The position numbers were made by a program. From Alkalispirochaeta sp. (lineage in GTDB: Bacteria > Spirochaetota > Spirochaetia > DSM-27196 > Alkalispirochaetaceae), in contig CBDESZ010000025.1 in NCBI GenBank assembly GCA_965242725.1, forward strand, positions 1 through 64,000: 64,000 nucleotides of DNA. Reading direction: 5' to 3'. Positions 15,001-21,000 of this stretch are shown one piece after another. How positions within the stretch are numbered: position 1 is the stretch's first letter; each line of letters begins with the position of its first letter.

Positions 15001-18000
15001 ACGGGGCTGATCGTCGACGCCGTGGGGTTTCGGTCGATCTTTCTCTTTTCATCTGTCGTGATGGTGGCGTCCTTTCTTGTCATCACCCGTGTCCAGGGGG
15101 GAGAAACCGAGCGAAGCGAAAGGGAAGGGCGGTAGGCGTCCGACGCGACCGGGCCGACGCAACCGGACCGTCCCGACAAGGTCGCCTCGAGCCGACCGTC
15201 GCGACCTGCGACGCCAAACGTGTCTACACGACGGCGCTGAAGAGGGGGGCCCAGCCGGCGGAATGTTCTATCACTGAGAATCCCGCCCGGGAGAACATAT
15301 CCCGAACCCCGTCCGGGGTCAGGAGGAGAAGATTCATGGCGGTGCGACGCTCCTCTCCTTCTTCGACGGAGATGGATGCATCAAATCGTATGGACCGCTC
15401 CGACACCCGGGTGTACCGGCGCCGCATCGTCACCTTTGGAACGGTCGCATCCCGAACCGGCGCGTCCCCGAGCCTCGTCGGATCCGCGGCGCCCGCTGTG
15501 CCCGCGGCGCTTCCCGACAGCGTCGGCAGGTCCCGGAACGCACCGACGGCAAGATTGGAGACATCCACAAACCGGACGATGAGCACGCCGTTGTCGCGCA
15601 GGATATGTCGGACCGACGTAAACCATCGCGCCACCTCATCGTACGAGGCGAGGTGGGAAATGGTGTTTCCGACGGAAAAGACCACGTCGAATTGCCCGTA
15701 CCCCAGCGAGGCCGGGTGTTTCCTGCCGGGGGTGTCCCCGGCCGTCGCACCGCCTCTCACTCCTGTGGCGCCTCCGGCCGCCGGATTGCCGCCCCTGCCT
15801 CCCCCTCCAAAGAAGACGGGAAGGTTGCCGACGTCCCGCATATCGGCGACGGCGTATCGGTCGGCGCGGGAGGGATCGGCAGCGGCGGCGCGGGTGATCA
15901 TCTCCGGTGAGAGGTCGATCCCCCACGCCTCAAAGCCCATGGTCAACAGACGTCGGACGTAGCCGCCCGTTCCGCACCCGACGTCAAGCACGGAGCCGCC
16001 GGACGGCGTCGACGACGAAATTCGGGAAAGCGTGTCGTCGTCCACGCCGAAGAGCGCATCGTAGTGGTCCACAAAGGCGCGGTAGAAGGCGTTGGAGTCA
16101 CCGACGCCGCCCGCCCCGGAGGTGTGCCCGATCTCTTCACCGGCGGCGCCCCCAACCGGGCAATCGGTCACGACGGAACCCTTCCGTCGTCGACAAAGGA
16201 ATCAAGCGTATCACCTCGGCGGATTGCGGTGCGCAGCTCCTCCTGGAGGGTGTCCAGGGCGCGCAGCCTCGCCGCGAGCTCCTCTTCCGCTTCCGTCCGA
16301 TGGCGAACCTCGGCGATTCCACCGTTGGCGATGACGAGGCGCCGCGGGGCGGAAAGGGCAAGGGAGGGGTCGTGGGTTGCGATGAGGACGATCTTGTCCG
16401 CTCCCCGGAGCACCTCGATGGCGGCGTGGCGGTTTATGCCGGCGTTTTCAATTTCGTCAATAAGGACGATGGGCGAGCTGGAGAGGAGTGCCGTATCGGC
16501 GATCATCAGCGCCCGGGACTGGCCTCCCGAGAGTTCCGTGAGCTGCCGGTCCAGGGAGAGGGGCTCGCCGGTGAGACCGTTTGCGGCCTCCACAATCCGG
16601 GCCGCCCGCTCCGGCGTCACCGTCACGCCCCGGCTTTCGCCGTGGAGGGCGAGAAATTCTCCCACCGTCGCGTCCATGACAAAGTTCATGTTCTGCGACA
16701 ATTGCGCCACGAGGCGTCCCGTACCGGCGTAGCGCCCGGTCAGGTCCGGTTCCTCGCCGTTCACCAGGACCGAGCGTCCCGTCGGAGTGTCCTCCCGGGC
16801 GAGCCATTCAATGTCCGCCAGAAACCGGCTCTTCCCGCTGCCGGTGGCGCCGACGATGCAGACAACCTCGCCGGTGTGAAAGGTCAGCTCCTCGAATCGT
16901 TCCGACGCTCCCGTCTTGTCCGTGCCGGGTAAGACGGTTAAAGATCGAACTTCGTTCCGCGTCGATTCATCCTCTCCGAGCAGCGCCGCCAGCGCCTCGT
17001 CGGTGGTGGGGTTGGCCGTCATCATTTCATCCATGATTTGTCTCCGTGAGATTGAGGGGAGTCACATTGCCGATTTGATGGGCCGCGCCGATGCGCTGCT
17101 CCCCGAGACAGTAGCTGCATACGGCGCTCGGCATGGGGTAGCGCAGGCGCGATCCGGTAACGGTAGCCTGCTCCGGCGCCTCGTCACGGAGAAGGCGGGC
17201 GAGCTCAAAGGCGCCCTGTCCGCTCAGGCCGTTCACCGGCAGAATGCGGGCACGGGGATTTGCCTGACGCACCCGGGCGGCAAAGACCTCCCGTTCCGCC
17301 TGACTGACGACATCTCCCTTGGTAATCACCACCACATCGGCGGTACGGAGCATGGGCCCTACCTTGCGGGGAGTGTTGATGCCGCTCAGATTATCGATTA
17401 CCGCCACCGCCATGACGTCCCTGATGTGGGGAGAGCAGCGGTTGCAGAGACCGGCGGACTCGGTGAAGAGGACGGGCACCTCCTCTTTCATACCCCAGGC
17501 GAAGGTCTCCTCAATGTTGCTGGCGAAGTAATGGTCCGGGCAGATCGATCCGGAGAGTCCCTTCTGTACCGGAATACCAAGCTTCGCATAGCGCTCATCG
17601 TCATCGGTAGTGAGACAGTCGAATTTCACGACCCCCGCTGCCACGTTCATCCGACGCAGCTCCACCACGGTCTTGAGAATGACCGCGGTTTTGCCGCAGG
17701 AGGGCGGCCCCGCAACGGTGATCAGCTTCATGAAGCCGCTTCCGTCGTCCGGGCCACAGGGGCGTGACGCTCCCGCAGAACCGTCTGGAACAGCGCCGTG
17801 GTTTCCTTCAACAGGCTCGGCAGCTCCGGAGAGAGTAGAAGATCCCAACCGGGCCACTGCAGAGGATGTTCCTCGGCGTCAAAATCGTCATTTTCCGGGT
17901 GGGTGCTGGGAAAGAGGCCGAGACGGCTCATGACGCGGCTCATCGGCAGTCCCGCGATCTCCCGGACCAGTGGATCGATTTCCGGGCGATTTCCCTGGGT

Positions 18001-21000
18001 TATCAGCAGGATAGGCGCTGCCAGGGCGCCGTCCTCGGGCCATATGGGAATGAGCGGGCTGTCCTCGGTGATCGTCCGGGTAAAGAAGTAGGGCATGACC
18101 GTAATTGCCGGCCCCTCCTGACCGCCCCCGGGGGTCGCCGTTTTTGCACCTGCCACCATCTGGGAGGGATGCATCTGCTGAAACATGTTGCGTCCCAGGC
18201 GGCGGATACCTTCATCGCCGAAGTTCTTGTGGACTCCCAGGAGGAGGGCATCAAAGAGATCGAAATCGCCGACGGGCAGGGCAAGGGAGTTTTCAAATTC
18301 CGGGGTGAGTATTTCCCGCCACGTCCGGGGAATCGGCCGCGACCCCAGGAGATTTCGGTTTACCATGAAGACCGCCGGTACGACGCCGATGACTGAAAAT
18401 CGGCCTTCCGGATCGGCCAGATCGTTGGACGTCCCGAACCCGTTGTGGCCCTTCCAGCCGGTGCGGTCGGAAAACACGTCGTTCCGGCGCAGGGAAAGGA
18501 ACCGGGGATCCGTGAAGAAGAGTCGGAATCCGGCGGAAAGGAAAATTTCCGGCACATCCGCCGGCGCGGGATCGGCGGGAATGTTCTCTTCCATCCAGTC
18601 GGTGCCGGTATAGGCTGCCTGGAGGTTATAGTCCACGGCGATGCCCGTCTCGGCGGTAAAATTTTCGGTAAACGCATCAAGGACGTTGGTCATGGGAACG
18701 CGAATGGGGCACGGCACGAGGCCCATCACCTTTATCGGCTTTCCCGCCCTTTTATCGGAAGAGGTCTCGCCCGCCGGGGCGTCGGATGGGTCGGAAAGGG
18801 CATCCTCCAGACGGGACAGAAGCTCCTCCGGGGCAAGTCCCCGGGCGTGGGCTGCCGCCTCTATCGTTATGGACGAGCCGAAGCGCTCCCGCAGCGCCGG
18901 ATCGGCCAGGCGACGGAATCCTGCATCGACGAGAATCTGTATCGTTTCGGGATATGATTCGGTCAGCTCATAGAGCGTCACATCTTTGTGTATGGTCATG
19001 ATCCAACAATAGCCCTGGCGGGATAGAAAGAAATTGACCGAGGTCAAGTGGTGGAACGTTTCCCGTCGTCGGGTATGCATATTTCACCGATCCGGAATGG
19101 AGAACGCGACGATGTTTGATTCACTGGACGCTCCGTGAGGCGAGTGGTACCTTAATACCCATGAACGTCGATATTGCACAGATGTACGTCGGCATGCAGC
19201 AGGCGGCGGCGCAGAATGAGGCGTCCATGGCGGTCCTCGCCAGGAGCCTGGATGTTGCCGAAACGCAGGGCGACCAGATGGTCAACATGCTTGTCAGTGC
19301 CGGGGCATCGGCGACCGTCGGGACGGACGCACAGGTAGCCCAGGGGCTGGCAATCACCGATCCCGCGCTGGGCGGCGCGATAGACTTTACGGTGTAACCC
19401 GCCGCAGGCGGGCAGATACATACCGACCCTCCCGTTTCCCACCGCAGACATCGTCCGTTGACTCCGTTGAAATCGTCGTCATGTATGTGCAACGCTGCGT
19501 CCGGAGGTGAGATTGAACGATTTCTTTTCCGATCTGAGCCGGAAATCGGTACAGAAACTGGAGACGGCTGAAAGCACGCGTGTCGTCCCCGCCGATGGAA
19601 TTATTTTTCTGGAAGGCGAGGAGGGGACGGAGGTCTTCCGTCTCCTGTCCGGCTCGGTCAGACTCTTTCGGAGCACCCCCGACGGCCGGGAGGTGACGAT
19701 CCATCTCGTTGCACCGGGCGAACTCTTTGCCGAGATCGTCCTGTTTGAGCGGGACACCTATCCGGTAAGTGCCGTCGCCACGGAACAGTCGCGGCTGGCG
19801 GTGATAGCGCGACGCCGCATCCGGACCCTTCTTGATGACGCGGATTTCCGGGACGAGTTCATGAAAAACATAATCGGGAAAATGCGATTTCTCTCACAGC
19901 AGCTCTACGTACTTGCGACGATGGATGTCAGGCAGCGCCTTATCCGGTTTCTTGAGGTGCGGTATGGCCGCCGCCCCGTCATTGAAAGCGAGCTGAACAA
20001 ACAGGAAACGGCGGCGGCCATTTCGGTCCGCCCGGAAACACTGTCCCGTGCATTGGCGGGTCTCCAGACGGAGGGACTGCTGACGTGGAAGGGGCGGGAG
20101 ATTTCTGTAACTCCCGCGTTGTGGGCGGAAGGTGAGGCGTGAAACCGCTCTCCCCGAAGGCGGCGGCCGTGGCGGTTATCGCCGCCGTTGCGGCAGGGGG
20201 CATACTCCTGTCGGGGACGGGGAGTGATGCAACAGGGAGAGGAACGGACAGGAAGGAAACGCTCCGAATTGCGACGCTCAATGTCCATTATCTCGACATG
20301 CGCGACATGCGTGACGGATCTGCCGGGGCGGGTGATCCTGACGTGACGAGTTGGATGGGTCGGGACCGCGCCGTCGTGGCGGTGCTGCGGGAAGCGGACG
20401 CGGATATCGTCGCATTCCAGGAAATGGAAACATTTGCCGGCGGCCATTCCAACGAGGAAAACCTGCAGCAGGCGACGCTGTCGGAGGCTTTTCCGGAGTA
20501 CGCCTTTACCGCGACGGGTGATCCCCAACAGTTCCCGAATACGCAGCCCGTGATGTTCCGGGAGCGTCGCTTTGCCGCAGGCGAGCAGGGATTCTACTTC
20601 TATTCTCCCACCCCGGATGAGATCTACAGCTCCCCCTGGTATGGCCGCTATCCCGCCTTTGCCACCTGGGTTCGCCTTGAAGACCGCAATAACGGCAGAC
20701 GATACCTCGTCATGAACGTTCATATCGATCGGGAACGGCACCGTAACAAGATTCTCTCGGCCCGCCTGACGGCGACCCGCATCGCCGAAATAAGGCGTCC
20801 CGAGGAGACGGTGATCGTCGCGGGCGACTTCAACTCCCTCCGATGGTCCCGGGTGGTCCGGATCATTGCGGGTGGGGCGGAGCTGGAGATCGCTCCCGGT
20901 GACGGCGCGACCTTTCACTTTTACCGGGGATTGAACCTCCTTCCGGCGATTGATCACGTTCTGTATCAGAGACGCGGCGAGGGCGGCACCGTCGGATTGA

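Follow-up and report, generated by a model that had tools for sequence, protein, structure and literature searches.

Gene content of the locus

The window analysed, the first 64,000 nucleotides of contig CBDESZ010000025.1 of Alkalispirochaeta sp., contains three mutually overlapping open reading frames on the minus strand, coding for a binding protein, a GTPase and an ABC ATPase. Overlaps of 4 nt and 8 nt, read from the sequence, bear out the overlapping trio described in the genome-wide survey's note. The features of the locus are as follows:

15224..16171, minus strand: class I SAM methyltransferase, 4-nt overlap with the ATPase stop, a local add-on
16168..17034, minus strand: ABC ATPase, predicted soluble, 288 aa (domain search, E 1.5e-13)
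17027..17731, minus strand: GTPase of 234 aa from an unnamed G3E subfamily, its invariant residues being C39, C64-P-D-H67, C96xxC99 and C205xxC208
17728..18999, minus strand: protein with a binding-protein fold, predicted cytoplasmic, 423 aa, with a DUF1858 cap (18817-18993) and an FbpA/AfuA-type domain bearing the invariant P96-C97-P98
19006..19011, minus strand: -10 element (TAnnnT), 22 nt past the operator, with the ATG 6 nt further
19034..19047, no strand assigned: HcpR1-type operator TTGAC-N4-GTCAA, a perfect palindrome with its centre 41.5 nt ahead of the start codon
19507..20142, plus strand: divergent CRP/FNR-family regulator of the HcpR1 type, recognition helix PETLSR

The trio had been placed at 16168..19080, of which the ATPase end stands; the binding protein starts at 18999 instead, because a start at 19080 would run through the operator, and the cysteine of its P-C-P motif, the invariance of which holds, is therefore C97 and not C124. 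In a scan of 159 loci, the methyltransferase had homologues among the called genes of loci L004 and L005 only.

A recount over 80 loci, in which, as in all locus and genome counts given here, related organisms are not independent, finds the ATPase in 79, the binding protein in 78 (previously 76), an 80-aa Cys-rich protein in 36 (35), a CRP-type regulator in 29 (23) and hcp in 17, the ATPase and hcp tallies being unchanged. A search of this genome yielded no gene for the 80-aa protein (best E 0.024; assembly 92% complete), as the survey had also reported. With regard to the survey's MJ0120/MJ0121 family label, look-alike clusters with archaeal members were found.

The three proteins and their association

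Residues 3-61 of the binding protein match DUF1858 (E 2e-14), the protein also matches SBP_bac_6 (E 1e-52), and its structure model (pLDDT 90.6) superimposes on H. influenzae FbpA (Z 22.4, rmsd 3.4, 289 aligned), in line with the proposed FbpA/AfuA-type fold, with sugar-phosphate and PLP binders reaching tied Z scores. The usual ligand set of FbpA is not evident among its invariant columns, which place a single invariant Cys in the cleft; judged from the aligned range, the P-C-P of the cleft loop would lie where FbpA carries His9. As claimed earlier, there is no signal peptide, the N-terminus being formed by DUF1858, and a lipobox is absent from 97 homologues, while three conventional importers that this genome encodes with the same fold, taken as controls, each combine a signal peptide with an adjacent permease and ATPase. 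The protein is accordingly unlike the exported binding proteins of type I ABC importers such as FbpABC.

The GTPase matches the cobW/HypB/UreG domain (E 4.5e-10) and has the G-domain fold and the G1 (GxxxxGKT, with G13-K14-T15), G3 (E91) and G4 (K138-G-D140) motifs of G3E GTPases, and in a homologue search it retains 62-68% identity over at least 10 phyla. The six Cys and one His reported as invariant (C39, C64, H67, C96, C99, C205 and C208) are retained in 102/102 loci of the group to which the window belongs and in 52/52 loci of a sister group, and C64 aligns with the cysteine of the UreG CPH motif, here CPDH. Two 'TGA inside' flags, considered as selenocysteine codons, are terminal stops. 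PMC9164220 defines COG0523 (CobW/ZigA/Nha3) by a CxCC motif together with a C-terminal domain that varies; no CxCC occurs in the GTPase sequence and no C-terminal domain was matched. Scores against the HypB model TIGR00073 (57.2 bits, cut-off 121.2) and the UreG model TIGR00101 (33.4 bits, cut-off 204.2) also fall short of membership and, as far as its sequence tells, the GTPase is a G3E subfamily outside the four described ones.

With the UreG-UreE/F/H and HypB-HypA systems it shares the fold, the G1-G4 motifs, the Cys at the CPH position and, in 41/102 module loci, a gene for a small CxxC/CxxC partner. A role as a common nickel chaperone serving hydrogenase or urease would agree with a fold nearest to UreG (Z 20.8, rmsd 2.6 and 186 aligned for a fused homologue) and HypB and with the automatic naming of the 80-aa partner as HypA-like in one Atlas cluster, but is most improbable given the scores far under both cut-offs, the lack of any hydrogenase or urease found in this 92% complete genome and NiFe hydrogenase matches in only 8/55 genomes of the window's group. 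The GTPase further differs from UreG and HypB in being only 20-26% identical to solved structures, in its six invariant Cys including a C-terminal CxxC and in being paired or fused with an ABC ATPase, mostly in hosts without a nickel enzyme client. Thiol chemistry at the cysteines (S-nitrosothiol or persulfide transfer) in place of metal carriage, which the NO link described below, the single cleft Cys and the missing FbpA ligand set would accommodate, is very unlikely, since the described G3E subfamilies all serve metal or cobalamin delivery according to PMC9164220, and the DUF1858 cap scores 17 against a cut-off of 45 for the redox-disulfide model TIGR03980.

The ATPase belongs to the ABC superfamily, with an intact Walker A, Q-loop, LSGGQ signature, Walker B DE and H-loop, invariant in 76-79 homologues, and a D-loop reading ENAGIN; it is without the N-terminal DUF1858-like domain of ~55 aa found in most homologues. 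Soluble ABC ATPases that act in cofactor handling include SufC/SmsC, MCR component A2 and PhnK/PhnL. The likeness to these lies in an ABC ATPase without a membrane partner; their partners are SufB/D, MCR and C-P lyase, whereas here a G3E GTPase and a binding-protein fold are found. Structure comparison places SmsC on top, practically tied with transporter ATPases, so that no soluble ABC ATPase is singled out, and no further conserved gene among the neighbour clusters could represent a SufBC/SmsBC-type scaffold.

The GTPase gene precedes the ATPase gene in 79/80 loci, both domains are carried by 86/90 long homologues, and an intact fused open reading frame is present in eight loci, the fusion model reaching a pTM of 0.82, its disordered linker notwithstanding. 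Apparent fusions of 583-623 aa proved to be separate open reading frames, and some long homologues, among them three joins of binding protein and GTPase, are single-contig cases that may be frameshift artefacts and were excluded as evidence. Since the two proteins are naturally fused in other lineages, the partner of the ATPase is probably the GTPase. The GTPase-ATPase pair is the core of the module.

Membrane helices are predicted in none of the three proteins (highest 19-residue hydropathy 1.46 for the binding protein, 1.15 for the GTPase and 1.50 for the ATPase), and there is no cognate permease in the window and none conserved in 102 related loci. The survey had counted a permease within 5 kb in only seven of 80 loci; none is conserved, as it held, and 15/102 loci of the window's group do have one within 6 kb, never at a fixed place. 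The ATPase could nonetheless power a membrane transporter encoded elsewhere, with the signal-less binding protein as a cytoplasmic gating sensor. The NrtC/CmpC regulatory domain and NasS are NrtA-type cytoplasmic sensors tied to a transporter or an antiterminator. They share with the module the cytoplasmic use of a binding-protein fold, which here is FbpA-type and GTPase-tied. In keeping with a transporter, the ABC motifs are intact, the nearest sequences with solved structures belong to MacB/LolD/MJ0796-type transporter ATPases, importer permeases lie near 33/52 sister-group loci, and loci L120 and L155 have a permease in the same operon and no other ATPase nearby. This alternative is nevertheless unlikely, as 42/48 permease-linked loci possess their own conventional ATPase, the same-strand membrane neighbours of the operon (12/82 loci) are varied, and its recurrent fusions with the GTPase indicate that the partner of the ATPase is soluble. 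Compared with the FbpABC/AfuABC/PotABCD importers, the module likewise has an operon in which an ABC ATPase accompanies the binding-protein fold (Z 22), but it has neither signal peptide nor permease, and its ATPase is nearer to MacB/LolD than to FbpC/MalK. The fusions and the missing signal peptide thus uphold the earlier reading of a cytoplasmic system distinct from a canonical importer, while the metal or Fe-S delivery it also named stays a proposal.

Regulation and the link to hcp

The operator matches the HcpR1 consensus given in PMC1274295. Perfect boxes number six in the 4.3-Mb genome, close to the chance expectation (4.3), so that only their position is informative: one precedes the operon and another precedes hcp, which lies on another contig (C30:103784), as previously stated. 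Two of the six are in a foreign-looking stretch of 70% GC on contig C4. The -10 element at 22-nt spacing recurs at the hcp gene of this genome and in 64/75 distinct related upstream regions, where no other offset exceeds 11, and the ATG only 6 nt beyond it suggests a leaderless mRNA. The two literature HcpR motifs occur upstream of 47/92 loci compared with 17 matches in 2870 control windows, the box type tracks the recognition helix of the adjoining regulator, and an operator arm is common to the operon and the hcp gene of the same genome in 19/27 pairs (permuted mean 8.8, maximum 16 in 5000). Variants of the operator that go beyond these literature motifs were picked after the data had been viewed, their backing coming only from the arm-sharing and -10-spacing tests.

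The regulator at 19507..20142 is the top CRP-family match in the genome to a profile of operon-linked regulators (E 7e-68) and is the probable activator of the operon. With a box that is common to it and hcp and lies where an activator would bind, and with matching regulator residues, the operon has the sequence features of an HcpR regulon member and is predicted to be switched on together with hcp under NO. The operator motifs and the link between recognition helix and box type are those of the HcpR regulon in PMC1274295; its Table S1 does not list the module operon for F. nucleatum or clostridia, and includes one Desulfuromonas entry, 'ABC transporter ATPase component', of unassigned identity. 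The proposed tie to nitrosative stress is therefore supported by the operator and promoter layout shared with hcp, but holds only for this branch.

A dedicated maturase building the Hcp hybrid cluster would be in line with the shared operators and with hcp lying within 6 kb in 26/102 loci of the window's group and immediately downstream in 5/9 close relatives retrieved. In the window's group hcp is present in 48/55 genomes; it has no match in 7/49 genomes having the module. In one family of 189 genomes hcp is found in 185 and the module in 37, so Hcp does not need the module, and 13/29 hcp-positive close relatives also lack it. With the module missing from most hcp-bearing genomes searched, and the same invariant residues serving nif loci without a nearby hcp, such a maturase is distinctly unlikely; the best reading is that the module is accessory to Hcp and not obligatory for its maturation.

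Candidate metals and a proposed mechanism

The sister group (52 loci) is found in nitrogenase, molybdenum and metal-importer neighbourhoods; 16 of its loci are without a binding protein nearby, and 16 have mod, ModD, ModE or moa genes in the vicinity. For one linked importer, HI1472 ranks third among the solved matches (E 1e-20). Within 6 kb, modA is present at all eight fusion loci and nifH at five, with ModD-, ModE- and AnfO-like genes co-oriented at other loci. By its gene neighbourhoods, the sister group speaks for molybdenum no less than for iron. Molybdenum or tungsten (as oxy- or thio-anions) could then be handled in all lineages, NO control being a later rewiring, and a Moco operon does lie 10 kb from the module in this genome. 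However, only 1/102 loci of the window's group is near nif or Mo genes, MoaC is matched in 31/55 genomes of that group and has no match in 24, including the complete-chromosome records L039 and L034, and this 92% complete genome yielded neither nitrogenase nor a DMSO-reductase-family enzyme, which leaves this explanation quite unlikely. The module fairly probably handles a metal. The chance that this is iron is about even; iron is favoured because it is common to Hcp, nitrogenase and siderophore-type importers, while nickel and molybdenum fit less well with the above distributions of NiFe hydrogenase and MoaC.

The metal, target and protein contacts in the following scheme are those that we infer. 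The divergent HcpR1 would very probably activate the promoter from the box at -41.5, as the sequence features indicate, and the three proteins can be expected with high confidence to remain in the cytoplasm. The GTPase and ATPase likely act as one unit, judging from the fusions and the fusion model. The binding-protein fold would hold a metal complex (Fe2+, an Fe-S fragment or nitrosyl-iron) at cleft Cys97, ATP-driven closure of the ATPase would unload it onto the C64/H67 and CxxC sites of the GTPase, and GTP would gate its hand-over to the client or, in hosts that encode it, to the HypA-like 80-aa protein. Taken as a whole, a soluble machine co-induced with hcp under NO that handles iron for damaged or new Fe-S enzymes, Hcp included, is an evenly balanced proposition. 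More tentatively, the module may represent a new class of machine, a 'transporter without membrane' in which an ABC ATPase, directly coupled to a G3E GTPase, works on a binding protein in the cytoplasm, ATP stripping a metal complex from the cleft (nitrosyl-iron after NO damage; Fe/Mo in nitrogenase clusters) and GTP handing it to the client; it might serve the HcpR regulon as an arm for iron salvage and could perhaps supply a missing metal-delivery step in clostridial nitrogenase assembly.

In agreement with the survey, no description of the module was found in the literature covered, which excludes subscription papers. Descriptions of the HcpR regulon usually name hcp and a ferredoxin and, to our knowledge, the recovery of metal centres in strict anaerobes after NO is largely an open matter. 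The module is probably an unstudied cytoplasmic machine, most likely one that carries iron to the damaged metalloenzymes of anaerobic bacteria or away from them. It would constitute a very conserved extra member of the HcpR regulon, the GTPase-ATPase fusions offer biochemists both activities in a single chain, and the nif-linked branch would connect the same chemistry to nitrogenase.

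Operon structure and occurrence

Three minus-strand ORFs overlap in the window, as the genome-wide survey's note had reported, and a candidate operator lies upstream of them:

18999-17728, minus strand: binding protein (423 aa) with DUF1858 and SBP_bac_6 domains
17731-17027, minus strand: GTPase (234 aa) with a cobW/HypB/UreG domain
17034-16168, minus strand: ABC ATPase (288 aa), identified by domain match
19034-19047: operator, perfect TTGAC-N4-GTCAA, found by sequence search

The binding-protein start at 19080 proposed in that note is too early, as homologue alignments begin at 18999 and the added part would take in the operator. 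Alkalispirochaeta records are the closest relatives. Among the best 80 genome loci of at least 569 matches, and hence in a biased sample, the ATPase is found in 79, the binding protein in 78, an 80-aa Cys-rich protein in 36, a CRP-type regulator in 29 and hcp, the gene of the NO-defence enzyme Hcp, in 17, with the order binding protein, GTPase, ATPase kept without exception. Clusters formed at 90% identity that match the GTPase number at least 6405. The module is real and conserved. A small YjfB-family gene (19161-19397, plus strand) is located between the operon and its regulator, and in locus L002 operon and regulator stand directly back to back. Some loci contain two or three binding-protein paralogues (L120, L152, L114-L116), and in genome G114 the GTPase-ATPase pair occurs four times, in differing contexts.

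Location and properties of the three proteins

None of the operon proteins has a membrane helix, and the binding protein begins with DUF1858 and lacks a signal peptide, supporting the survey's view that this is not a transporter, in the sense of not a canonical importer. No lipobox was seen among 97 binding-protein homologues. Binding proteins without DUF1858 in a sister group of 52 loci mostly start a few residues ahead of the first strand, so their cytoplasmic location, as read from sequence, is independent of the DUF1858 cap. Three conventional same-fold importers of this genome each include a signal peptide, a permease of 10-13 helices and an ATPase of 362-411 aa. Across the 102 loci of the window's group a permease occurs within 6 kb in 15 and never in a fixed position. 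Among the permease-linked loci of both groups 42/48 have an ATPase of their own. The exceptions are L120 and L155, which carry a permease inside the operon and no second ATPase, the two-permease sugar-type units L136 and L141, and two further loci that lie at the ends of their contigs.

The binding-protein model (pLDDT 90.6) is matched about equally by FbpA, AfuA and P5PA (Z 21.7-22.4), and the fold therefore does not name the ligand. Its single invariant cysteine is C97, within P96-C97-P98. The structural alignment range places model residue 88 at FbpA residue 1; with no gap in the first strand, the C97 loop would then line up with His9 of FbpA. A His stands there in the most divergent members. 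The ATPase is closer in sequence to the MacB/LolD/MJ0796 type (E 4e-14) than to the MalK type (E 3e-8). Its N-terminal DUF1858-like domain (HHalign probability 45%) has been lost in the window's lineage and in Fusobacterium (16168-17034 in the window; L015, L021, L036). The Cys-rich gene is present in 0/8 loci with the short ATPase, which come from two lineages only, versus 40/77 with the long form.

GTPase residues C39, C64, H67, C96, C99, C205 and C208 are invariant in 102/102 loci of the window's group and 52/52 of the sister group, and all except C39 are retained in most distant representatives. C64 aligns with the cysteine of the UreG CPH motif, and two distant relatives bear a C-terminal Fe-S domain. 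The protein fails the family tests for both HypB and UreG, and also the definition of COG0523 in PMC9164220, which lists four G3E subfamilies.

The core of the module is the GTPase-ATPase pair, both with intact NTPase motifs by sequence. Both domains occur in 86/90 longer homologues, and an intact fused ORF is seen in eight metagenome loci, the fused proteins being scattered over several separate tree positions. A single, control-free model of the fusion named for C. beijerinckii reaches a pTM of 0.82 for two similar-size domains despite a disordered linker, which suggests a defined interface.

Regulation

A second perfect TTGAC-N4-GTCAA precedes hcp of the same genome on contig C30; the six such sites in the genome are about the chance number. 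At both promoters a TAnnnT hexamer follows exactly 22 nt past the box, an offset found in 64/75 distinct related upstream regions (other offsets at most 11 each). This arrangement is that of a class II CRP/FNR promoter. The layout common to operon and hcp argues for the link to nitrosative stress proposed in the survey.

The divergent regulator in the window has the recognition sequence PETLSR; across loci PET-type regulators pair with TTGA boxes and RP-type with GT boxes. Among CRP/FNR-type regulators, PMC1274295 describes two box types: TTGAC-N4-GTCAA belongs to HcpR1, whose residue 180 is Ser or Pro, and GTAAC-N4-GTTAC to HcpR2, which has Pro at 181. These two motifs occur upstream in 47/92 loci with enough flank (controls: 17 hits in 2870 windows). 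Neither was found upstream of 46 sister-group operons, a zero weakened by the possibility that promoters there lie elsewhere. Operon and hcp of the same genome share an operator arm in 19 of 27 usable genome pairs (of 30 retrieved), lineage-specific variants counted, with a permuted mean of 8.8 and inflation by relatedness. The operon is not in Table S1 of PMC1274295 for F. nucleatum; L039 nonetheless has a perfect box. Elsewhere in the genome, a GTAAC-N4-GTTAC box stands at the start of contig C30 (position 11), ahead of another CRP-family gene (113-790), and a 70%-GC stretch of contig C4 (396000-408000, L102) in this 58% genome, possibly assembly contamination, contains two perfect TTGAC-N4-GTCAA boxes.

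Candidate clients, metal and mechanism

In a tree of 155 GTPase domains the sister group is set apart (core 52 tips, support 0.94), the remaining tips having weak support of their own (0.43). It has nif or Mo genes near 19/52 loci, counts enriched in nif contexts because the fusion was the query that retrieved many of them, FecCD permeases near 18/52 and hcp near 0/52, and 16/52 have no nearby binding protein. In the window's group hcp is near 26/102, the Cys-rich gene in 41/102 and nif or Mo genes near 1/102. All eight fusion loci have modA nearby and five have nifH within 6 kb; in L154 the fusion lies ahead of a nifH-PII-PII-nifD-nifK run. Importers linked to sister-group loci resemble HI1472, a molybdate-binding protein, in some cases and a siderophore binder in another. 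In L148-L156 the genes between the fused gene and nifH encode the binding protein, a regulator that combines an HTH with a PBP-like part, an AnfO-like protein scoring below its family cut-off and an unannotated product of about 320 aa; this set is conserved in six loci.

Among 55 genomes of the window's group, 48 encode hcp, 31 MoaC and eight NiFe hydrogenase-like hits. Among 61 relatives, hcp occurs in 16/19 genomes with the GTPase versus 13/42 without it, and in the family of genome G061 hcp is present in 185/189 scored genomes (12 left unscored) and the module in 37/189. The dependence runs one way, and the module is accessory, since hcp is common without it. We favour iron as the metal, since Hcp, nitrogenase and siderophore-type importers share no other and since Moco or nickel enzymes are missing from many hosts. 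For the sister group, molybdenum is still plausible. No hydrogenase, urease, nitrogenase or DMSO-reductase-family enzyme was matched in the window's genome (92% complete), the last despite its Moco operon (56-5783, plus strand: moaA, moaC, a mobB-mobA fusion, moeA and a moaE-ThiF-rhodanese fusion). At a distance of about 2.3 kb from the module's ATPase lies another unit for metal or redox functions (8706-13826, minus strand), in which a second CRP/FNR regulator precedes an HMA chaperone, a P1B-type ATPase and a chemoreceptor that carries a hemerythrin domain at its C terminus.

In the mechanism we propose, NO would induce the operon, GTPase and ATPase would form a complex, a metal complex would be captured at C97 of the binding protein, and ATP would drive its unloading, with hand-over gated by GTP. 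The literature search found no description of the module, nor do the available parts of PMC10434189, PMC6344411, PMC6282519, PMC9312934, PMC5701242 and PMC12915319 contain one. The module is apparently undescribed and represents a new architecture among NTPase metallochaperone systems.
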